DNA of 32,000 bases. Origin: Actinoplanes sp. N902-109 (GTDB taxonomy: Bacteria > Actinomycetota > Actinomycetes > Mycobacteriales > Micromonosporaceae). Below, piece by piece: positions 9,279 through 32,000 of the stretch (the stretch's first letter is position 1; each line of letters begins with the position of its first letter). Under the pieces are notes generated by a model. That model made no database searches. It had not been told where the DNA came from and saw only the letters and a program-made list of their open reading frames with translations. The stretch covers positions 1,959,104 through 1,991,103 of the forward strand of contig NC_021191.1 of assembly GCF_000389965.1 (NCBI RefSeq). Direction: 5' to 3'. Both the position numbers and the translations under genes were made by a program.

Positions 9279-9782
9279 TCACCCGGCCGTGGTGTTGCTT
9301 GCCGCGATGGGCTCGAAGCGGGGCTCGGCGATCCTCAGGTAGTCCTCGGTGCGCAGGGCCATCGACCGGTCCAGCCGGGCGGCGTTGAAGAACAGCTCGG
9401 GGAACGCTTTGATGCCGGGGTCGGCGATCAGCTCGAGCTCGTCGCTGAACGAGAACGGCAGGATCGTGCCGGCGACGCACCCGGACAGCCGTTCGGCGAT
9501 CTCGGGGTTGGCGAACGAGATGTACGTGCCGCCGAGCAGACCCTTGATGGCCTGCAGGTCGACCCGCGCGTCGCCGGGGACGACCGCCAGCACGTACTTG
9601 GTCACCTTCTTGCCGAGCTTGACCATGACGATCATGCACTTGGCGGCGGACGCGACCTCGTGCCCCCGGTATCCGCTGACGATCTCGGTGCGGCCCTCCT
9701 CGGGATGGTCGATCAACCGATAACTCGCGCCGTTGGTGTCGAGCAGGGCGATCAAGCGGTCGTAGGTCTCTTCGTAGGGCAT
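9279..9782 (-). CDS. YbaK/ProX-type aminoacyl-tRNA deacylase; FthB-like fluorothreonyl-tRNA deacylase candidate
   Basis: 167 aa from MPYEETYDRL. YbaK/INS-domain features are present (AAKCMIVMVKLGKK..YVLAVVPGDARVDL.AIK, GTILPFSF). GAGGGG lies 9 nt upstream of ATG 9782. The gene is divergent from an EamA exporter, as fthB/fthC are in S. cattleya. Confidence 0.75.
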   Translation of the reverse strand: MPYEETYDRLIALLDTNGASYRLIDHPEEGRTEIVSGYRGHEVASAAKCMIVMVKLGKKVTKYVLAVVPGDARVDLQAIKGLLGGTYISFANPEIAERLSGCVAGTILPFSFSDELELIADPGIKAFPELFFNAARLDRSMALRTEDYLRIAEPRFEPIAASNTTAG

Positions 9783-9805
9783 CGTGCCCATCCCCTCGGA
9801 GTCAG

Positions 9806-9850
9806 CAGCAGCGTTCAAGACAGTGGCGTTCAAAGCAGTGGCGTTCAATA
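9806..9850. promoter_or_regulatory. Three tandem 15-bp direct repeats (CAGYRGCGTTCAANA) in the divergent deacylase/exporter promoter, followed by an AT-rich box
   Basis: cagcagcgttcaaga / cagtggcgttcaaag / cagtggcgttcaata at 9806, 9821 and 9836. They are followed by cgtacTTTATATTgtacg (9864-9881), the most AT-rich stretch I noticed in the cluster. Confidence 0.5.
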
Positions 9851-9931
9851 CGGTGTGCGATTTCGTACTTTATATTGTACGGTGGGCCCTGCCAACGCGG
9901 AGGGGCCGCACGGGGGAGGCACTGAAAAGTC

Positions 9932-10933
9932 ATGAGAAATCCATCCGGGCTGTCTCCGGAGCTGATCGACACGCCAGCCGGAGCGCCTGTGGCGCTGCCG
10001 CCTGTCCCGGTGACCCGGGATCGCTCGGCGCTGCTCCGGTCCGACCTGTCCATCCTGCTGGTCGCAATCATCTGGGGTTCCAGCTATGTCGTGATGCAGA
10101 CCGTGGGGGACAAGGTGCCCGCCGCGGCGTTCCTCGCGTTGCGCTTCCTCACCGCACTGCCGGTGGTGCTGGTGCTCGCGGCTCCGTCCCTGCGCCGGCT
10201 CAACAAGGTGGAGGTGCTGGCCGGTGCGGCGTTCGGCACCATGCTCTACGGCATCCTCATCCTGGAAACGATCGGTGTCCAGCACACGTCCGCAGCCAAT
10301 GCCGGATTCCTCATCACCGTGTCGGTGGTGCTGGTGCCCCTGCTGGAGCGTGTCCTCAGTGGCCGGGCGCAGCCGCGCATCGTCTACACCGCCACCGTCT
10401 TCGCGCTGCTGGGCTGCGCGTTGCTGCTGCTGCACGACGGCATCCATCCGCGCTCCGGCGACCTGATCATCCTCGCCGCGGCGATGATCCGGGCCACCCA
10501 GATCACGCTGTTCGGCCGGCACGTGCACGGGCAGTCGATCCAGAATCTCACCGCCGTCGAATTCGTCGTGGTGGTCCTGCTCGCGACCGTGACGTCGGTG
10601 GCGACCGGGCATCCGGTGTGGAGCGTGGCCACCCATGTCGACGGCCGGTCCTGGTTGCTGATCACCTATCTGGGCGTGCTCGGCACCGCGTTCGCCTTCT
10701 TCATGCAGCTGCGTTCCGCCCGGCTCTCCAGCTCCACCCGGGTGGGTCTGATCCTGTGCACCGAGCCGGTCTTCGCCACTGCGTTCGCGTTGCTGGTGGC
10801 GGGTGAGACCCTGGGGTTGCTGCAGGCCGTCGGCGGTTTGCTCATGGTCGGCTCCGCGCTCGTCGGACGCGCCGCGGAGTCCAGCGGGCAGGAAACGGAA
10901 GATCGGGCAGCAAACCCATCAGGGGCCGGATGA
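9932..10933 (+). CDS. EamA/DMT family transporter; FthC-like 4-fluorothreonine exporter candidate
   Basis: 333 aa with about 10 TM helices in two EamA-like halves (LLVAIIWGSSYVVMQ...; LITYLGVLGTAFAFFMQ...). It pairs divergently with the YbaK-like gene. Confidence 0.75.
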   Translation: MRNPSGLSPELIDTPAGAPVALPPVPVTRDRSALLRSDLSILLVAIIWGSSYVVMQTVGDKVPAAAFLALRFLTALPVVLVLAAPSLRRLNKVEVLAGAAFGTMLYGILILETIGVQHTSAANAGFLITVSVVLVPLLERVLSGRAQPRIVYTATVFALLGCALLLLHDGIHPRSGDLIILAAAMIRATQITLFGRHVHGQSIQNLTAVEFVVVVLLATVTSVATGHPVWSVATHVDGRSWLLITYLGVLGTAFAFFMQLRSARLSSSTRVGLILCTEPVFATAFALLVAGETLGLLQAVGGLLMVGSALVGRAAESSGQETEDRAANPSGAG

Positions 10934-10970
10934 TCACTGCCCCGGCCCGGCTGCACTGTTAAATGAGCGC

Positions 10971-11582
10971 GTGACACAGGAAAGTTTTGGTCCGCCGGCC
11001 GTCGGCATGGGCGCCGCCGTGGGCAGGGAGATCCGCCGCTTCCGGGAGGCGCGCCGGATGTCGGTCTCGGAACTGGCGCGGCGGGCGGATCTCAGCAAGG
11101 GCACGCTGTCCCGGCTCGAGGCCGGCGGCGGCAACCCGACGATCGAAACGATCGCGGCCATCGCTGTCGCGCTGCGTCTGCCGCTGGGCGACCTCATCCC
11201 GACGTCCACCCCGGCCATCCCCATGCTGCAGCGCGGCACGCCGGACCCGGACTACAGCCGGCAGGACCTGTTGCAGCGCATCGGTCCGGGTGTCCTGACC
11301 GAACTGTGGCGGGTGCGCATCCGGCAGGCCGGCGGGCTGGTGGACAGCCCCGCGCATGCCGCCGGCACGGTGGAATACCTGCTGGTGAGCCGCGGGGTGT
11401 TCCGGGCCGGGCCGGTGAGTGCGCTCAGCGAGCTGCACGCCGGTGACTTCCTGGTCTATCCGGCCGATGTGCCGCATCGGTACGAGGTGGTCGATGGCCC
11501 CGGCGAGGCCAGCCTGATGATGACGTATCCGGCGATGAACGTCGGCGTCGCCGGTTCCCCGCTGCACGCCGAGACGCCCTAA
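10971..11582 (+). CDS. XRE-family HTH transcriptional regulator with C-terminal cupin domain
   Basis: HTH motif MSVSELARRADLSKGTLSRLEAGGGNPTIETIAAIAVALRLPLGDL, and cupin motif GDFLVYPADVPHRYE. The start is uncertain: GTG 10971 or ATG 11007. Confidence 0.75.
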   Translation: MTQESFGPPAVGMGAAVGREIRRFREARRMSVSELARRADLSKGTLSRLEAGGGNPTIETIAAIAVALRLPLGDLIPTSTPAIPMLQRGTPDPDYSRQDLLQRIGPGVLTELWRVRIRQAGGLVDSPAHAAGTVEYLLVSRGVFRAGPVSALSELHAGDFLVYPADVPHRYEVVDGPGEASLMMTYPAMNVGVAGSPLHAETP

Positions 11583-11750
11583 GAGAGCCGGTCCACCCAG
11601 GCGCAGGGAGAGCGAGCCGCGCGGGGAGAGCGAGCAGCGCGCGGGGGAGAGCCGGTCCACGCGGGCGCGGGGAGAGCCAGTCGCGGGGGCGGATAGGGCC
11701 GGTCGCGCGGGCGGAGGGAGAGCTGGCCCGCGGGAGGCGGAGGGGGGATG
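11583..11750. repeat. Degenerate GC-rich tandem repeats built on GGGAGAGC(N)GCGCGG, immediately 3' of the XRE-cupin stop
   Basis: GAGAGCCGGTCCAC occurs at 11583 and 11647. GGGAGAGC-type cores occur at about 11606, 11624, 11644, 11669 and 11715, spaced about 18-25 bp apart. Confidence 0.6.
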
Positions 11751-11865
11751 CTGAGTCCGTGTGTGCGGAAGGTCGTACGGGAATATGACGTATGGCTGAC
11801 GCCTCCGATCTCGTCCGACAGCCACTATGGATGGAGGACGATGGTTCCGTAACCGCTCGGAGGCA

Positions 11866-12510
11866 ATGATGCCGACGTCGTCGACCGTCGAGGAAGCCGT
11901 TCTACGCCGTGGTTTCCATCCCCACCCGCGGCGGGGCGCCTGCCTGCTGGAGCTGGTCAGCACCCTGCCCGGGGGACCGTGGACCGATCGGCCCCGGGGC
12001 GTGCCGCCGTTGCTGGCCGTGGTATGCCGCTCGGTGAACGACCGGCTCAGCGACGCGGCGCGGTCCGGCATTCTGCCCGCGGTGCCGTGGCTGGCCGCGC
12101 TGCCCGCCGCCGCCGGCCGTGATCCGGATGCCTTGTTCGGCGGGCTGCTCGAGGCGGCCGCGCGGTGGGCCGGTGCCGCGGTGTGGGCGTTGCCGCGCGA
12201 TCGGCCGCGGGCCCGGGTGCTCCGGCGTGCCGTGCGGCAGGTCGCTGAGCTGCCCGGGGCGGATGCGGCGCTGCAGCAGCTGCTGTTCGACGCGATCGAT
12301 GTGACGCGGACGGGGTGCGGGTTGCCGCCGGTGCCCTGGAGTTCCCAGCCGTCCGTTGCCGGGCCGGGCGGCACCGTGGGGTTGCGCATGCGGGCCGAGA
12401 CCCGCTGCCCCGACGACAGCCTGTCAACCTATCTGTGGTGCGGTGCTGAGCTGCAGCAGTGGCCCGGTGCGCTACGGCAGGCCTGGGCCGACGCGCGACC
12501 CGCCGCCTGA
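11866..12510 (+). CDS. Hypothetical protein (no recognisable family)
   Basis: ORF 11827..12510 with GC-typical codon usage. GGAGG lies just upstream of the ATG-ATG pair at 11866/11869. No motif was recognised, so coding status is only moderately supported. Confidence 0.4.
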   Translation: MMPTSSTVEEAVLRRGFHPHPRRGACLLELVSTLPGGPWTDRPRGVPPLLAVVCRSVNDRLSDAARSGILPAVPWLAALPAAAGRDPDALFGGLLEAAARWAGAAVWALPRDRPRARVLRRAVRQVAELPGADAALQQLLFDAIDVTRTGCGLPPVPWSSQPSVAGPGGTVGLRMRAETRCPDDSLSTYLWCGAELQQWPGALRQAWADARPAA

Positions 12511-12842
12511 TCGGGCCCCGGCCGGGTCAGGCCGGGCCGGGTCATGCCGGGCCGGGTCAGGCCGGGTCAGGCCGGGTCGGCCTTGGTGGCGCGCCGCAGG
12601 GCACGGCGCGGCGCAGGGCACGGCGCGGCGCAGGGCACGGCGCGGCGCAGGGCACGGCGCGGCGCAGGGCACGGCGCGGCGCAGGGCAGGGCACGGTCAA
12701 GGCCGGCCTCGGTCGCGCGGGCCCGGCACGGTCAGGCCCGGCCTCGGTCGCGCGGGCTCCCGGCCAGTCAGGCCGGGCCGGCCTCGGTCGCGCAGGCCCG
12801 GCACGGTGAGGCCCGGCCTTGGTCGCGCGGGCCCCCGCCCGG
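12511..12842. repeat. Composite tandem-repeat tract filling a convergent intergenic region
   Basis: GCCGGGTCAG-type 10-15-bp units span 12517-12580. A 34/37 copy of the response-regulator 3' end (12565-12601 versus 12841-12877) follows. Next is a 17-bp unit GCAGGGCACGGCGCGGC, about 5.5 copies (12596-12697). Four 34-39-bp units resembling TCAGGCC(N)GGCCTCGGTCGCGCGGGC span 12698-12842. Confidence 0.85.
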
Positions 12843-13592
12843 TCAGGCCAGGCCGGCCTTGGTGGCGCGCCGCACGGCATCGGTACGCGAGGTGGCGCCC
12901 AGCTTCGCGTAGATGTTGGTCAGGTGCCGCTTGACCGTGCCCTCGGCGATGAAGAGCTTGCCCGCGATGTCGGAGTTGCGCATGCCCTCGGCCACCAGCG
13001 TGAGCACCTCGGCCTCGCGGTGGGACAGGATGGGCTCGCTGTTCGCCCGCAACCTGTTCATGGTCTCCCGGGACACCGACAGGACCACGCGGTCCTCGTG
13101 CTGATCCACCACCCGGATCGTGGCGAGCAGTTCGTCCAGGCTCGCGCTCTTCATGATGTACGCGTGGGCCCCGGAGGAGAGCAGGTGCTCCACCCGTCGC
13201 GGGTCGTCGCGGGTGGCGAGGATGACGAGTTTGGCCTGGGGGATCGCGTGCCGTAGCAGCTGCAGGTCGTCGAGCGCGTTGGAGTTCGCCGCGTCCAGGC
13301 TGACCAGCAGGATGTCGGGAAGTTGGCGGCGCAGCGTCTGCATGGCCTCGGGGCCGGGGCGCAGCGCGCCGACCACGCGGATGCCGTGCTGTCGTTCCAG
13401 CAGACCGACCAGCCCCTCGCGGAACAGGCCGGGCTCATCGATGAGGGCGACGGTGATGAGGCCGGCGGTGCCGGAGGTCACGGCGCTGGGGTAGCGGCGC
13501 TGGCTGGTCGGCTCGGTGCGGTGCTGGCCGGCGTCGAGCATGCCGGCGCGGTCGGAGGTGGGGTTGTCGTAGGTGGCATGATCGTAAGTCAC
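12843..13592 (-). CDS. NarL/FixJ (LuxR-type) response regulator
   Basis: Receiver features are present: ALIDE, LLVSLD (phospho-acceptor Asp), VILAT, YIMKS. The LuxR HTH reads [44 protein letters not shown]. The start is GTG 13592, preceded by GGGGAG. No histidine kinase lies adjacent in the window. Confidence 0.8.
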
Positions 13593-14036
13593 GCACAGCT
13601 CCCCGTACTTTCGTGTTTTCTCCAGCTGACGTGTCCGTTCAGGGTGTCGCGCGCCGCCGTGGTGCCGGCATTGGCTCGCCGACCGGCAGTCAGGCCGGCG
13701 GCACTGGTGTGGGCGGCTGGGGATCATGGGCCGGCCAAATCTCTGTTCATGTGGCTACCCCGGTTCGACGACGCGGATATCCGTCCGGTTCCTTCAGTCG
13801 AGTCCGGCCGGTGATGGCGCCCGGCACGGCGTCGCGAAGTCACATGCTGTCGCAGGCTTAATACTGCGCGCGACAGGCACGTAAGTAAAGGTTCCCGGGA
13901 AGCTGCGCCGAACGTCGTAGTGCGATGTGATACGTGGGTCAATCGCTATGCGTCTTCCGCCGTCCGCCCGGGCTGGGATTTCATCGTCAGGAGCCGGGCA
14001 ACGGGCCTGGACGGCAATGACGAAGGAAGGCTGGCG

Positions 14037-14579
14037 ATGAGCTCCGGGACAAAGATCGCATTGGCGTCGCAGGTGCGGGTGTTCCCCGACTTCCCGCACC
14101 CGGGAATCGCATTTCAAGATCTTGCGCCGCTGTATGCGGCGCCCGGTCTGATCACCCGGTTGGGCGCCGAGGTGGCGGATTCCTTTTCCGGCGAGTTCGA
14201 TACCGTCCTGGCGGTCGAGGCTCGCGGCTTCGTGCTCGGCACGGCGGTCGCGATGGCTGCCCGGTGCCCCCTGGTGCTGGCCCGCAAGCAGGGCAAGCTA
14301 CCCGGCCCGCTGCACTCTGCCGAATACAGCCTCGAGTACGGCTCGGCCGTGCTGACCGTGCAACATGGTGCAATCTCCCCGGAATCGACTGTGCTCGCGG
14401 TGGATGACGTCCTGGCGACCGGCGGCACCCTCGCGGCCGCCGCCGATCTGGTCAACCAGGCGGGCGGCGGCCTGGCCGGGTTCGCGGTGCTCCTCGAGCT
14501 CGGCGCGCTGGGTGGCCGGGACCGGCTCCAGCCGGCCCGGGTCTTTTCGTTGCTCACCTCCGGCGAAGCGCCGAAATAG
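14037..14579 (+). CDS. apt: Adenine phosphoribosyltransferase
   Basis: FPDFPHPGIAFQDL.PL, AVEARGF.LG, and the PRPP-binding loop VLAVDDVLATGGT. A GAAGGAAGG RBS precedes ATG 14037. Confidence 0.9.
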   Translation: MSSGTKIALASQVRVFPDFPHPGIAFQDLAPLYAAPGLITRLGAEVADSFSGEFDTVLAVEARGFVLGTAVAMAARCPLVLARKQGKLPGPLHSAEYSLEYGSAVLTVQHGAISPESTVLAVDDVLATGGTLAAAADLVNQAGGGLAGFAVLLELGALGGRDRLQPARVFSLLTSGEAPK

Positions 14580-14663: not shown

Positions 14664-15638
<975 letters not shown>

Positions 15639-15649
15639 TCCCCCCGGCC

Positions 15650-15680
15650 GGGCCGGCACGGACCTCGTCCGTGCCGGCCC
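15650..15680 (+). terminator. Perfect 14-bp GC stem-loop between the fluorinase and antiporter genes (terminator/attenuator)
   Basis: GGGCCGGCACGGAC (15650-15663), loop CTC, GTCCGTGCCGGCCC (15667-15680). It lies 12 nt after the flA stop and 27 nt before the next start. Confidence 0.55.
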
Positions 15681-15706
15681 GTTGTCATCTCCCGAGAGAA
15701 GACGTC

Positions 15707-17080
15707 ATGAGCCTTTCTTCCCAGCAGATAGCTGCGCTGGTCGCCGTCATCGCCATCGTCGTGCTGATGTGCCACGCGATCGGTGGCTTGTTCGCCCGCT
15801 ACCGTCAGCCGGTCGTGGTGGGTGAGATCCTCGCGGGCCTGCTGTTCGGGCCCACCGTGCTGGGCCTGGTCGCCCCGGACTTCCAGCACCTGCTGTTCCC
15901 GCGTACCGGGCCGGTGGCGGCGATCCTGGCCGGGCTGGCCCAGCTCGGCATGCTGCTGCTGATGTTCGTCACCGGCAGCGAACTGCGGTTGACCGCGTCG
16001 CCGGGTGACCGCCGCACCATCGGCCTGGTCGCCGCGACCGGCATGGTGGTGCCGTTCGCGGTGGGACTCGCCGTGGTCGCCGCCCTGGACTATCACGACT
16101 TGAGCGGCCCGGCCGGTACCCGTACCACCACGATTCTGGTCTTCGCGATCGCGGTCGCGGTGACCAGCATCCCGGTGATCTCCCGGATCATGCTCGACCT
16201 GGGCCTGCTCGGCAGTTCGTTCGCCCGCGTCGTGCTGGGGGTCGCCGCGCTCGAGGATGTCGGGCTGTACGTCGTGCTCGCCGTCGTGCTCAGCCTGGCC
16301 AGCGCGCCGGCCACGGAGTTCGGGCTGTGGGAGCTGGTCGGGGTGCACACCACCGGCTGGACGGTGGGCTACCACACGACGATCACCATCGTCTTCCTCG
16401 GGGCGTTCCTGATGTGGGGCACGCCGGTCTTCCGGTTCCTGCTGTACGGGCCGGCGCGGGTGCTCTCCCGGCGCAATCCCGCCGCGGCCCGGCTCGTGCT
16501 GCTGCTGATCGCGGTGCTGGTCTGCACGCTGCTCGGCATCAACCCCATCTTCGGGGCCCTGCTCACCGGCATCTGCGCGCGCCGGGCCGAACCGGATCGG
16601 GTGCCGGTGGAACCCGGCGCGCCCGGCCTGGGACAGCCGGACTCGTGGGCCACGATCCGGCACTTCTCGCTGGCGTTCTTCATCCCCGTGTACTTCTTCA
16701 CCGTGGGGCTCGGGCTCGACCTCGTGCACGACTTCGACGTCTGGTTCTTCGTCTGGTTCTTCCTGGTGTGCTGCGTGGTGAAGTCGCTGAGCGTGCTGGC
16801 CGGCGCGCTGCTGAGCCGGCAGTCGCTGCGGTGGTCGCTGGACCTGTCGATCGCGTTGAACGCGCGCGGCGGGCCGGGCATCGTGCTGGCGACCACGACG
16901 CTGAGCGCGGGCGTGGTGAACCGGTCCTTCTACACGGCCATGGTGCTGCTGTCGGTGCTCACGTCGCAGATCGCGGGGATGTGGCTCGACCGGCGGTCCG
17001 CGGCGCTGCTCGGCTGGGACCGGGACGTGGCCGGCGGACGGACCGACGCCCGCCCGGTGGCGATCGGCGAGCAGCACTGA
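15707..17080 (+). CDS. Cation:proton antiporter (CPA family, Na+/H+ exchanger type); FlH-like
   Basis: 457 aa, multi-TM. The N-terminal signature QPVVVGEILAGLLFGPTVLG is typical of Kef/NapA-type CPA2 exchangers. It sits immediately downstream of flA. S. cattleya flH is annotated as a Na+/H+ antiporter. Confidence 0.8.
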   Translation: MSLSSQQIAALVAVIAIVVLMCHAIGGLFARYRQPVVVGEILAGLLFGPTVLGLVAPDFQHLLFPRTGPVAAILAGLAQLGMLLLMFVTGSELRLTASPGDRRTIGLVAATGMVVPFAVGLAVVAALDYHDLSGPAGTRTTTILVFAIAVAVTSIPVISRIMLDLGLLGSSFARVVLGVAALEDVGLYVVLAVVLSLASAPATEFGLWELVGVHTTGWTVGYHTTITIVFLGAFLMWGTPVFRFLLYGPARVLSRRNPAAARLVLLLIAVLVCTLLGINPIFGALLTGICARRAEPDRVPVEPGAPGLGQPDSWATIRHFSLAFFIPVYFFTVGLGLDLVHDFDVWFFVWFFLVCCVVKSLSVLAGALLSRQSLRWSLDLSIALNARGGPGIVLATTTLSAGVVNRSFYTAMVLLSVLTSQIAGMWLDRRSAALLGWDRDVAGGRTDARPVAIGEQH

Positions 17081-17149
17081 GCCGGGACGGGAACAGCGGC
17101 AAGGGGGACGGGCCGGGTGGCATACGCCACCCGGCCCGCCCGGCCGTGT

Positions 17150-18127
17150 TCACCAATGCAGCGCCGTTGCCGCATCGGCGGCCGCTCGATCGCCGTACAC
17201 GGTGGCCAGCTCCGTGGTGAACGCGGTCCGGTCCAGCTCGTACTCCTGCGGGCCGACCACCCGCAGCACCAGCGCGGCCAGCGCGCAGCCGAGTTGAGCC
17301 GCGGGTACCAGCCCGAGTCCGGCCGCCACACCGGTGAGGAACCCGGCCCGGAACGCATCCCCCACGCCGGTCGGGTCCACCGGCTCGGCGACCGGGACCG
17401 CCGGGACGTCCAGCACCGGGTGGCCGTCCTGCTCGATGCGCGCACCCCGGGCGCCCAGCGTGGTGACCCAGATGCCCACCCGGGACAGCACCTCGTCGTG
17501 CGTCCACTCGGTCTTCTGCAGCACCAGCGCGTGCTCGTACTCGTTGGTGAACAGGTACTGGGCGTCCTCGATCAGCCGCCGGATGTCCTTGGGCTCCATC
17601 ACGGCCAGCTGCTGCGACGGGTCCGCGACGAACGGGTAGCCGCGGTAGCGGCACTCGTCGGTGTGCCGCAGCATCGCCTCCGGATCGTTCGGGCCGATGA
17701 CCACGTGCCGCACCGATCCCAGCCGGTCCACGGCCGGCCGCAGCTCCAGCCGGCGGGCCTGGGTCATCGCGCCGGGATAGAACGAGGCGAGCTGGTTGCC
17801 GTCCCGGTCGGTGATGCACTGGAACCGGGCGGTGTGCAGGTCCGCGGACTGGTGGATCGACGCGACATCGACGCCCGCCCGTTCCAGCCAGGAGCGGTAG
17901 TCGTCGAAGTCGTGCCCCGCCGCGGCGAGCACGGCGGGCCGGTGCCCGAGCCGGGCCATCCCGAGGGCGATGTTGGCTGCCACCCCGCCGCGCCGCACGT
18001 CGAGCGAGTCGACCAGGAAGGACAGCGACAGACTGGCCAGTGAGCCGGGCACGATCTGGTCGACGAACCGGCCGGGGAAGGTGCTGAGGTGGTCGACCGC
18101 GATCGACCCGGTGACGAGCGTGGTCAT
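17150..18127 (-). CDS. PfkB-family carbohydrate kinase, adenosine kinase-like
   Basis: Starts MTTLVTGSIAVDHL; contains GGVAANIA and the C-terminal DPTGVGDAFRAGF ribokinase/PfkB motif. It resembles the actinobacterial AdoK type. It begins 5 bp after the metK stop. The upstream part of ORF 17150..19054 is a shadow frame. Confidence 0.75.
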   Translation of the reverse strand: MTTLVTGSIAVDHLSTFPGRFVDQIVPGSLASLSLSFLVDSLDVRRGGVAANIALGMARLGHRPAVLAAAGHDFDDYRSWLERAGVDVASIHQSADLHTARFQCITDRDGNQLASFYPGAMTQARRLELRPAVDRLGSVRHVVIGPNDPEAMLRHTDECRYRGYPFVADPSQQLAVMEPKDIRRLIEDAQYLFTNEYEHALVLQKTEWTHDEVLSRVGIWVTTLGARGARIEQDGHPVLDVPAVPVAEPVDPTGVGDAFRAGFLTGVAAGLGLVPAAQLGCALAALVLRVVGPQEYELDRTAFTTELATVYGDRAAADAATALHW

Positions 18128-18132
18128 CGCGG

Positions 18133-29938: not shown

Positions 29939-32000
29939 ATGGCCGCTCCCAAGCAGGTTGCCCCGGGCCGGGCAACCACGACCCGAGCCTCGGCCCGGGC
30001 CGCCAGCGCCGCCACCCCGGCCGGGCGCCCGGCCGCCAAGCCCACCGTCAAGCGCGTGGCTGCCGCGACGTCGACCACCACCCGCCCCAAGGCCGCATCG
30101 GCATCGGCGCCTCCGAAGGGTGCTGCTGCCGCCAAGACCGGTGCTGCCTCGAAGGCTTCGGGCAAGGCTGCTTCGGGCGCGGGCTCCACGGCATCCTCGG
30201 CCAAGGCTTCCGTCTCGACGACCGCCGCGAAGGGTGCCGCGGCGAAAGCCCCGACGGGCTCGACGGGCTCGACGGCTAAGGCATCGACCGCCAAGAGCGC
30301 TTCCGTCAAGGCCGGCACCGCCACCAAGACCACCGCCGCGAAGTCCGCCGCCGCTGCGAAGTCTGCCGCCACCAAGACCGCCGCCGCGAAGACTGGCGCC
30401 GCTGCGAAGTCCGGCGCGACGAAGACTGTCGCCGCTGCGAAGTCTGGCGCGACGAAGACTGGTACCGCTGCGAAGTCCGGCGCGACGAAGACTGTCGCCG
30501 CGAAGACCGCCGCTACCAAGACCGCTGCCGTGAAGACCGCTGCTGCGAAGTCCGGCACTGTTGCGAAGTCCGGCGCGACCAAGGTTGCTGCCGTGAAGGG
30601 TGGCGCCGCCAATTCCGGCGTGAGCAAGGGTTCCGCCGCGAAGGCCGGCGTGAGCAAGGTTCCTGCCGCGACGGCCGGCGCGAGCAAGGCCGGGGCGGCT
30701 AAAGCTGGTGCGGGCAAGCCGGTCGCCAAGCGCATCGCCGCCGCGACGTCGACGACGGCCAAGCCGACCGTCAGCGCTTCCGCGACCGATGCCGGCACCA
30801 AGTCGGCCCCCGCGAAGCGCACGGCTGCGTCGTCCACGACAGGTGCCGCGAAGCGCACGGCTGCGTCGTCCACGACAGGTCCCGCGAAGCGCACGGCTGC
30901 GTCGACCACGACAGGTGCCACGAAGCGCACCGCTGCGTCGACCACGACAGGTGCCACGAAGCGCACCGCTGCGGCCGCCAAGACCGCCGCTGCCAAGCCT
31001 GCCACCGCCAAAGCCAGCGTCACCGACGTCGGCGCCGCGGCCACCGCCACGACGACCGGCACCGCCGCCAAGGCTGGTGTCGCCAGGGCCGGTGTCGCCA
31101 AGAAGGTGTCCGCAGCCAAGAGTGTGGCACCGAAGGCACCGGCTTCGAAGGCTCTGGCTTCGAAGGCTCCGGCTTCGAGGACCACGGCGAAAAAGGCGCC
31201 GGCGACGAAGGCTTCGGCGAAGAACGTTCCGGCGACGAAGGCGGCTACCAAGTCGACGACTCGTTCGACGGCGAAGTCGGCATCCGCTCGGATCGGCGGC
31301 GTTGCTGCCACGGCGGCTTCGGCGGGGAGCGGCGCGGCGGCTTCGGCGGGGAGCGGCGCGGCGCGGAAGGCCACCGGGAAAGCGGCGGCTCCCACCCGGA
31401 ACGCCACCACGAGCGCCACCAGGAGTGCCGGCAAGGCCGCTACCACCAGCGGCACCAAGTCCACCGCGAGCAAGGCCACGGCGAGCAAGGCCACGGCAAG
31501 CAAGGCCACGGCGAGCAAGGCCACGGCGAGCAAGTCCACCGCGAGCAAGGCCACGGCGTCGAAGGCGACGAGCGGCAAGGCTACCGGCGCTGAGGCGGCA
31601 GGCGCCAAGGCGACGGGCGGGAAGGGCTCTGCTGCGAAGTCCGCTGCCAAGTCGGCCGCTACCAAGGCTGCGACGACGGCCAAGTCGGCAATGGCCAAGG
31701 CAACCACCGCAGCGAAGTCCATGACCAGCAGCAAGACGGCCCAAGCTTCCAAGACGGCCCAGGCTGCCAAGACGGCCCAGGCTGCCAAGACGGCCCAGGC
31801 TGCCAAGACGGCTCAGCCGTCCAAGACGACCCTTGCGAAGGCGACCGCGACCAAGACAGCCGCGGCGAAGGCGACCGCCGGCAGGACAGCAGCCAAGCCC
31901 GCCGCGGCGAAGGCCACCGCAGCCAGAGCCACCGCGGGCAAGCCGGCGGCCACCACCAGTACGGGGGCGAAGGTGACCGCTGCCAGGGCGGGCGCGGGCA
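29939..32000 (+). CDS. Very large Ala/Lys/Thr/Ser-rich repetitive basic protein (histone H1-like / HU-tail-like low complexity), 3'-truncated by the window edge
   Basis: ATG 29939 lies 7 nt after a strong AAGGAGGA RBS. I read the frame by hand to 32000 with no stop, and G/C dominates third positions. The protein is MAAPKQVAPGRATTTRAS... followed by (A/T/S)xK repeats. It is missing from the ORF track because it has no stop. The listed ORFs 29830..31806(-), 29915..31744(-) and 30708..31724(+) are its shadow frames. Confidence 0.7.
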   Translation, partial: MAAPKQVAPGRATTTRASARAASAATPAGRPAAKPTVKRVAAATSTTTRPKAASASAPPKGAAAAKTGAASKASGKAASGAGSTASSAKASVSTTAAKGAAAKAPTGSTGSTAKASTAKSASVKAGTATKTTAAKSAAAAKSAATKTAAAKTGAAAKSGATKTVAAAKSGATKTGTAAKSGATKTVAAKTAATKTAAVKTAAAKSGTVAKSGATKVAAVKGGAANSGVSKGSAAKAGVSKVPAATAGASKAGAAKAGAGKPVAKRIAAATSTTAKPTVSASATDAGTKSAPAKRTAASSTTGAAKRTAASSTTGPAKRTAASTTTGATKRTAASTTTGATKRTAAAAKTAAAKPATAKASVTDVGAAATATTTGTAAKAGVARAGVAKKVSAAKSVAPKAPASKALASKAPASRTTAKKAPATKASAKNVPATKAATKSTTRSTAKSASARIGGVAATAASAGSGAAASAGSGAARKATGKAAAPTRNATTSATRSAGKAATTSGTKSTASKATASKATASKATASKATASKSTASKATASKATSGKATGAEAAGAKATGGKGSAAKSAAKSAATKAATTAKSAMAKATTAAKSMTSSKTAQASKTAQAAKTAQAAKTAQAAKTAQPSKTTLAKATATKTAAAKATAGRTAAKPAAAKATAARATAGKPAATTSTGAKVTAARAGAG

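Follow-up and report, generated by a model that had tools for sequence, protein, structure and literature searches.

A divergent deacylase and exporter gene pair in the fluorinase cluster of Actinoplanes sp. N902-109, with a predicted XRE-cupin operator in its promoter

In Streptomyces cattleya, FthB (SCAT_p0564) is a fluorothreonyl-tRNA deacylase and FthC (SCAT_p0565) a 4-fluorothreonine exporter (McMurry & Chang, PNAS 2017, as that study is summarised in PMC7408626, PMC7162832 and PMC13149037). Both proteins are highly conserved across 4-fluorothreonine clusters, and knock-outs of their counterparts in Streptomyces sp. MA37 (FthB-MA and FthC-MA) behave alike (PMC7408626, PMC7162832, PMC9173684); export was followed by knock-out and 19F nuclear magnetic resonance in both S. 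cattleya and MA37 (PMC7408626). A survey of actinomycete fluorinase clusters that included Actinoplanes sp. N902-109 found the two genes usually near the transaldolase gene (PMC9173684). This strain is among the published fluorinase organisms (PMC3999930, PMC5947533, PMC9173684), and its fluorinase cluster (FlA3 / FLA_ACTS9) was described by Deng et al. 2014, as cited in PMC3999930, with genomic contexts presented in PMC9173684. Here we analyse that identical locus in a stretch of 32 kb (70% G+C; hereafter, the window), concentrating on its fthB-like and fthC-like genes and on the spacer from which they diverge.

For this strain, both the gene pair and what it stands for have been published, as a self-protection module, and by themselves they add nothing new. 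In the literature searched, we found no description of the repeats in the promoter of the N902-109 cluster, or of an XRE-cupin operator. Modestly new, in terms of sequence, would be a conserved regulator-deacylase module with a predicted palindromic operator, present in loci with and without a transaldolase gene nearby. We consider it rather probable that the locus is a 4-fluorothreonine self-protection module controlled by an XRE-cupin protein through TGAAC half-sites, and that the promoter repeats are one half of its operator in triplicate. This reading draws on gene identities, synteny, the conserved geometry of promoter and operator and the linkage of regulator and deacylase genes, from which we infer the binding, the direction of the regulation and the ligand.

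The divergent gene pair and its described relatives

The genes on either side of the spacer, and the regulatory gene that follows, are:

9279-9782, minus strand: fthB-like gene for a free-standing aminoacyl-tRNA trans-editing domain of the YbaK/INS superfamily, 167 aa (WP_041833330.1 / L083_1813; Pfam tRNA_edit PF04073, E=1.4e-18)
9932-10933, plus strand: fthC-like gene for an EamA/DMT transporter, 333 aa (L083_1814, annotated as a DMT family transporter; two EamA stretches, E=7.3e-28)
10971-11582, plus strand: flF-like gene for an XRE-cupin regulator, 37 bp after fthC (HTH_3, E=3.2e-13; weak Cupin_2 match)

An earlier note, made from the letters of the window, had described a free-standing tRNA-editing domain and an EamA/DMT transporter with about ten transmembrane segments, encoded divergently from a 149-bp region, and all of these features were recovered where it had placed them, with the spacer at 9783-9931. 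The PF04073 match spans residues 38-150 of the deacylase, which is an exact match to a protein of N902-109 that RefSeq also gives as 167 aa. Its score lies under the NCBIfam cut-offs for YbaK (41.5 vs 153 bits) and it is thus not YbaK proper; the free-standing editing domains YbaK and ProX (PDB 2dxa and 2cx5) belong to the same PF04073 fold family but are only distantly similar to it (E=7.5e-07 and 6.9e-04). The transporter has 9-10 hydrophobic segments in a crude Kyte-Doolittle scan and clusters with the N902-109 protein AGL15324.1. NCBI annotates a shorter form, of 314 aa; the start at 9932 is supported by the homologue from P. deccanensis, which aligns from residue 2.

The earlier note had further equated the pair with FthB and FthC of S. 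cattleya and proposed a direct comparison, which gave 71% identity for the deacylase (162 aa, gap-free) and 66% for the transporter (287 aa, against SCAT_p0565). At the level of the proteins, then, the equation stands, and it extends to the linkage with a transaldolase gene and to the roles expected from S. cattleya and MA37, but the divergent layout is not that of S. cattleya. In this species and in Streptomyces sp. SAJ15, fthB, fthC and an amidohydrolase gene that follows them are all co-directional, and there is no adjacent XRE-cupin gene; moreover, the S. cattleya genes are on the megaplasmid, away from the fluorinase gene, in the order transaldolase, tRNA_edit gene (the FthB compared here) and EamA gene. 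The window pair, in contrast, is divergent, lies inside the fluorinase cluster and has the flF-like gene after fthC. Genes of the fthC type adjoin fthB in the window, P. deccanensis, one soil contig, S. cattleya and SAJ15. The divergent layout is a feature of Actinoplanes-type clusters, being found in the window, P. deccanensis, the same soil contig and a 14-kb JGI soil contig; the arrangement of fthB against fthC and the XRE gene is alike in P. deccanensis and the JGI contig.

Sequence similarity alone did not suffice to identify an FthB. The family is very large (3,884 matches) and slowly evolving, and many of its members, 60-76% identical to the window protein, are found in genomes or metagenomes where the neighbourhood contains neither a transaldolase gene nor an EamA or XRE gene. 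In a neighbour-joining tree, calculated with no bootstrap and showing short deep branches, the window deacylase falls among XRE-linked homologues, two of which have no transaldolase gene nearby. Since this unsupported tree mixes the clade of the window protein with such homologues, specificity for fluorothreonyl-tRNA rests on the genomic context and not on phylogeny or sequence: the gene adjoins the region of the 4-fluorothreonine transaldolase (6090-7955) on one side and the EamA gene (9932-10933) on the other. By homology with the tested proteins of S. cattleya and MA37, the deacylase would hydrolyse fluorothreonyl-tRNA(Thr) and the transporter would export 4-fluorothreonine.

The same logic is known from the beta-ethynylserine clusters, whose deacylase BesG belongs to the AlaX family (PMC13149037). 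There, as in the window, the producer of a non-canonical amino acid resembling threonine is protected by a trans-editing deacylase encoded in the same cluster; the editing domains differ, AlaX in BesG and INS/YbaK in the window.

Promoter repeats and a shared operator palindrome

The spacer and its surroundings contain the following sequence features:

9792-9797, minus strand: Shine-Dalgarno sequence GAGGGG of fthB, 9 nt before the ATG at 9782
9806-9850: three 15-bp tandem units with the core GCGTTCAA, which reads TTGAACGC in the sense of fthB (seen in the sequence and by Tandem Repeats Finder)
9841-9848, minus strand: promoter-proximal copy of the repeat, conserved as a right half-site, (T)TGAAC(G), and separated by 21 nt from the -10 box upstream
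9864-9881: AT-rich box cgtacTTTATATTgtacg
9890-9895, minus strand: -35-like hexamer TTGGCA, from the promoter scan

The three direct repeats reported by the earlier note are present, their core lying at 9811-9818, 9826-9833 and 9841-9848 with an exact period of 15 bp. Tandem Repeats Finder delimits them as 9811-9848, with 2.5 copies of period 15, 91% matches and a score of 62. The core occurs five times in the whole window against 0.70 expected, a number reached in 0 of 100 shuffles, and units read from the core are identical at 13 of 15 positions, spacers included; together, these values indicate a duplication rather than chance.

We compared the promoter in eight loci, read in the sense of fthB and anchored on the -10 box: the window, P. 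deccanensis (L001), Nocardia tenerifensis (L004), Amycolatopsis anabasis (L007), two Amycolatopsis fluorometabolite clusters (L088 and L089) and two soil contigs (L006, the one with the divergent pair, and L008). All eight contain a -10 hexamer (TATAAA, TAAAAT, TATAAT, TATAGT or TATATT) followed, 20-21 nt on, by TGAAC, which is TAAAC in N. tenerifensis. The sequence CCGTRCAATAWAAW (W = A or T) is common to the window, P. deccanensis and both soil contigs, while TATAGT or TATATT occupies the position of the AT-rich box in the other four. In the window, this box contains on the minus strand the -10 sequence of fthB, either TATAAA at 9874-9869 or TAAAGT at 9872-9867, and on the plus strand a possible -10 sequence of fthC, TATATT at 9871-9876. 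The earlier note had read the AT-rich element as part of an operator. The element exists, at 9864-9881, but it corresponds to the conserved -10 region: its CGTAC/GTACG arms, which could form a palindrome, are not conserved in P. deccanensis or L008, and what is conserved of it is the -10 box. Scanning for promoter consensus sequences retrieved TTGGCA-17-TAAAGT on the minus strand (one match vs 0.2 expected); we discarded TTGGCA as a conserved -35 sequence, there being no equivalent in P. deccanensis or the two soil contigs.

In both Amycolatopsis fluorometabolite clusters, TGAAC belongs to a perfect palindrome, CGTTCAG-TTTG-CTGAAC, with a 16-bp core GTTCAG-N4-CTGAAC, and makes up its right arm. 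N. tenerifensis and A. anabasis match 11 of the 12 arm positions, and L008 has a degenerate version, GTGCA-N6-TGAAC. Beginning 8-9 nt beyond the -10 box, the palindrome spans the expected transcription start, which is a position proper of a repressor. A search with a 12-position arm score across 11 XRE-linked or fluorometabolite loci found no equally good site beyond the homologous promoter position, and the looser pattern GTTCA-N6-TGAAC, examined over ca. 600 kb comprising all loci, led to the same result. As to a full palindrome of this FlF type elsewhere, we found none with at least 11 of 12 matches in the window or in the fluorometabolite loci of SAJ15 and S. cattleya; isolated GTTCAG hexamers upstream of flA and flG are not above expectation for AT-richer spacers. 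The promoter-proximal repeat copy of the window (9841-9848) is homologous to the right arm of the palindrome, this arm being intact (TTGAACGC) and present, with its flank, in three copies. Thus, the repeats plausibly look like a triplicated half of the predicted XRE-cupin binding site. They would have arisen when the right half of an ancestral 16-bp palindromic operator was triplicated in tandem in this lineage, with the two extra copies either adding binding, cooperatively or as a roadblock, or being neutral.

Between the palindrome and fthB, the two Amycolatopsis fluorometabolite clusters also contain a conserved open reading frame (ORF) of 106-116 aa with no Pfam match (L088 5603-5953, L089 5620-5940), which has no counterpart in the window.

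Several observations weigh against this interpretation of the repeats and of their regulator. The left arm of the palindrome is degraded in the window, with 3 of 5 matches, and direct half-sites at 15 bp are ill-suited to a symmetric dimer that reads arms 10 bp apart. None of the 91 related loci retrieved for this comparison contains the three-copy array. Among them, the closest genome, P. deccanensis, shows a single clean TGAACG and after it another repeat, GACCG, and L008 has just one copy. The Streptomyces clusters contain the resistance pair with neither an adjacent XRE-cupin gene nor a clear palindrome, and the neighbour-joining tree mentioned above places the FthB proteins of S. cattleya and SAJ15 elsewhere than the window deacylase. 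Besides, a recent neutral slippage is plausible as the origin of units that are nearly identical even in their spacers.

Indeed, replication slippage could account for the two extra copies, with at most the promoter-proximal one being of consequence. The near-identity of the units at non-core positions and the absence of the array from the 91 related loci agree with this, as do the single copy and shorter leader of L008. The window contains 71 tandem-repeat rows in its 32 kb, with strong arrays in neighbouring spacers (9126-9262, 11601-11723 and 12520-12869), and a tandem duplication is so common here that it is no sign of function by itself. Against slippage, L006, whose FthB is 89% identical, has at this position two more degenerate units resembling CTGC-TGAAC, with spacings of 12 and 15 nt, and P. 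deccanensis has repeated TGACCG units in the leader of fthB; this is weak evidence that multiple GA(A/C)CG units may be maintained in this leader. We regard neutrality of the extra copies as unlikely, though it is an alternative of some weight.

By their position, the repeats fall in the predicted leader of fthB, at about +14 to +51, and at about -35 to -72 from the possible start of fthC, predicted near 9883. Being downstream of the predicted -10 box they should be transcribed, and they might then act in the RNA, as a structured element of the 5' leader of fthB or one that binds a protein or tRNA there; a hairpin of 6 bp is conceivable for the ancestral palindrome. The 91-nt leader, however, folds worse than its shuffles (-15.9 vs a mean of -21.2 kcal/mol, z=+1.78), positions 9000-13000 have no Rfam match at E<=1, and compensatory changes in the palindrome arms are absent across the loci. 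A tRNA gene or mimic was likewise discarded, with no tRNA gene in the window and the likeness of GTTCAA to a T-loop judged to be chance. An action in the RNA is therefore highly improbable.

The repeats could also be translated, as an N-terminal extension of the deacylase (LNATA, LNATV, LNAAA) from a TTG at 9848: the ORF is open in frame over 9279-9848 and the repeat period is divisible by three. P. deccanensis and both soil contigs, however, have stops in this frame before the common methionine, which exclude such an extension, to which we assign practically no likelihood. The likely start of fthB is instead the ATG at 9782, as deduced from these stops, from the GAGGGG box 9 nt upstream, at whose position the same three relatives have GAGAGG, and from homologues, including S. 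cattleya FthB, that start at the same methionine; the 167 aa given by RefSeq agree with it.

Neither S. cattleya nor SAJ15 has TGAAC repeats upstream of fthB. Their fthB-fthC spacers contain a long inverted repeat, ATGCCCATGGTGT...ACACCATGGGCAT in S. cattleya (L002, ca. 10567-10637) and GCCCACGGTGT...ACACCGTGGGC in SAJ15 (L090, ca. 10611-10667), in which changes in both arms keep the symmetry. It encloses GTGTTCAGTAAACTGG and GTGTTCGTTATGCTGG, respectively, which match the FlF-type palindrome at 10-11 of 17 positions. This inverted repeat may be the fthC promoter and operator of Streptomyces.

The XRE-cupin regulator and its linkage to the deacylase

The product of the flF-like gene (10971-11582) is 100% identical to a 'putative DNA binding regulatory protein' of N902-109 and 55% identical to a chromosomal protein of S. 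cattleya with the same annotation, which we infer to be FlF; a 191-aa flF homologue is listed for the Nocardia brasiliensis cluster (PMC3999930 Table 1). Its Cupin_2 score, 20.5 bits, is under the Pfam cut-off of 27.2, but its homologues carry PF07883 matches and the C-terminal motif GDF..AD.PH is invariant. The gene is probably co-transcribed with fthC.

Genes for XRE-cupin proteins 53-85% identical to that of the window adjoin FthB-family genes in P. deccanensis, N. tenerifensis, A. anabasis, L008 and both Amycolatopsis fluorometabolite clusters, and another lies beside an FthB-family gene in the JGI contig. Seven of the eight promoter loci compared have an FlF-type gene next to the deacylase gene, the eighth contig being too short to show it. 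In L008, the divergent partner of the deacylase gene is the XRE gene and not fthC. N. tenerifensis (L004 8001-9168) and A. anabasis (L007 9361-10498) contain pairs of an XRE-cupin gene (58-61% identical) and an FthB-family deacylase gene (70-76%) but lack any transaldolase, EamA or fluorinase gene in the surrounding 8-10 kb, indicating that the module also exists outside known fluorometabolite clusters. Only 49 matches make up the small XRE-cupin family; for eight of them, the longest contig is of equal length to that of an FthB-family match, which suggests that the two share contigs. Searches of plasmids did not find further regulator-deacylase modules. Linkage in these several loci indicates that the pairing of regulator and deacylase is older and wider than the divergent pair of the window.

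The alignment of the XRE-cupin proteins shows a near-invariant SKGTLSxLE, a putative recognition helix by general likeness to XRE-type helix-turn-helix (HTH) domains. Its variable residue is T in the group with the palindrome, R or K in the Actinoplanes group and L or M in Streptomyces, tracking the operator differences among these groups.

Characterised XRE-cupin factors of Pseudomonas (ErfA, PsdR, PauR and others) are local repressors of adjacent genes that bind palindromes as dimers and occlude the promoter (PMC7901475). Like the window protein, they combine an N-terminal XRE HTH domain with a C-terminal cupin domain and are encoded beside their target; in the relatives of the window, too, there is a palindromic site over the promoter, and relief of repression by a ligand would be expected. 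PuuR of Escherichia coli is also an XRE-cupin local repressor. In contrast, the FlF-type proteins are an actinomycete family paired with a tRNA deacylase instead of a catabolic operon, and the operator of the window would be a palindrome reduced to an array of direct half-sites, with both binding and ligand being predictions. The local repression of adjacent genes by the characterised factors (PMC7901475) makes the XRE-cupin protein the best candidate regulator of the pair, and an XRE-cupin operator a plausible model for its promoter.

According to this model, fthB would be transcribed leftward from the conserved -10 box at ca. 9869-9874, starting near 9860, with an unstructured leader of about 80 nt that contains the three repeats. 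Genes fthC and flF would be transcribed rightward from the same AT-rich core, using the plus-strand TATATT at 9871-9876. The XRE-cupin protein would act as a local regulator on half-sites of the TGAAC type that closely follow the fthB -10 box. When bound at 9811-9848, it would cover the first transcribed part of fthB and, for fthC, the -35 region and the DNA upstream of it, repressing fthB, and probably also fthC-flF, until its release by a ligand. A small molecule in the cupin domain, most plausibly 4-fluorothreonine or a pathway intermediate, would lift the repression, switching on proofreading and export as the product accumulates.

The earlier note had instead taken the direct repeats to fit binding of the response-regulator type. 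The candidate is the flG-like protein of the NarL/LuxR type encoded at 12843-13727, for which the repeats would be an operator array that activates or represses the divergent pair. Its gene lies within the cluster and encodes a GerE DNA-binding domain; every actinomycete fluorinase cluster is reported to have kept flG (PMC9173684), and the position of the repeats with respect to the possible fthC start is typical of an activator. Nevertheless, we found no comparative link between the repeats and flG. The core of the repeats is the palindrome arm that tracks the XRE-cupin gene, even in N. tenerifensis and A. anabasis, which have no flG-like gene in the flanks examined. S. cattleya and SAJ15 have flG-type genes but not the TGAAC repeats, and P. 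deccanensis does not have the array even though its flG homologue is 80% identical; indeed, no locus among the 91 related ones has it. NarL/LuxR-type regulators, besides, usually read inverted and not direct repeats. The comparisons lend the attribution no support, and we consider control of the repeats by the response regulator improbable. 

Beyond the XRE-cupin model for the window, the FlF-type regulator and the FthB-family deacylase might constitute an older, mobile module of inducible tRNA proofreading, recruited into fluorothreonine clusters. On sensing, through its cupin domain, a toxic amino acid that resembles threonine, the regulator would derepress the deacylase, and in Actinoplanes the operator would have been remodelled into three half-sites that also control the exporter. 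This is a tentative proposal, more doubtful than not; the modules of A. anabasis and N. tenerifensis, with no transaldolase gene nearby, are consistent with it. To our knowledge, ligand-controlled expression of a trans-editing factor has not been described. If the FlF-type protein senses 4-fluorothreonine and controls both deacylase and exporter, the locus would be a case of inducible aminoacyl-tRNA proofreading, and the protein would provide a ready-made organofluorine-responsive switch for engineering the production of fluorometabolites. The linkage of regulator and deacylase in places with no transaldolase gene could also serve to find other producers or targets of threonine-like antimetabolites, complementing recent deacylase-guided genome mining on the AlaX family.

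Neighbouring genes and repeats of the cluster

The remaining identified genes of the cluster are:

6090-7955, minus strand: 4-fluorothreonine transaldolase, serine hydroxymethyltransferase fused to a class II aldolase (AGL15321.1; TIGR04506, 1205.7 bits, cut-off 650)
8115-9152, plus strand: MtnA-type isomerase, a candidate 5-fluoro-5-deoxyribose-1-phosphate (5-FDRP) isomerase (IF-2B, E=7e-62; TIGR00512, 356 bits, cut-off 279)
12843-13727, minus strand: flG-like NarL/LuxR-type response regulator, longest ORF (Response_reg and GerE)
13920-14579: adenine phosphoribosyltransferase (NF002636, 183 bits)
14742-15638, plus strand: fluorinase (UniProt R4LHX8, FLA_ACTS9, exact match; TIGR04507, 612.5 bits, cut-off 400)
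15671-17080: Na+/H+ antiporter (Na_H_Exchanger)
18133-19401: S-adenosylmethionine (SAM) synthetase (S-AdoMet_synt domains)
19355-20794: S-adenosylhomocysteine hydrolase (AdoHcyase)

The transaldolase and the fluorinase are far above their NCBIfam cut-offs and the MtnA-type isomerase is also there, in line with the proposal of the earlier note that the cluster is set up for 4-fluorothreonine. The transaldolase is 61% identical to the S. cattleya enzyme, and the NCBI annotation agrees; the fluorinase scores 539 bits against solved fluorinases vs 181 against the chlorinase. The conserved part of the flG-like ORF begins at about residue 90, the P. deccanensis homologue aligning with residues 91-293. 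None of the ORFs in the frames tried at 17117-18130 has a Pfam match; in a related soil contig, a gene for a PfkB-family kinase sits between those for the antiporter and the SAM synthetase. In the scanned parts of the window, we saw no purine nucleoside phosphorylase of the flB type.

The intergenic DNA of the cluster is unusually repeat-prone. The array at 9126-9262 is a 33-bp tandem repeat (4.2 copies, 86% matches, score 183) that begins within the final codons of the isomerase gene, whose stop is at 9152, and continues through the convergent spacer to the stop of fthB at 9279. The arrays at 11601-11723 and 12520-12869 are dense and G+C-rich, with 6.4 copies of a 17-bp unit plus 35- and 75-bp units; they flank an ORF (11827-12510) and extend into the 3' end of the flG-like gene. 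This ORF has no Pfam or NCBIfam match, and its identity in P. deccanensis is only 56% over 88 aa. Farther away, two ORFs without a Pfam match (29883-30533 and 30708-31724) contain, at 30300-31900, extended series of repeats with units of 15, 18, 33 and 36 bp and scores of up to 279, which look like repetitive, low-complexity protein.

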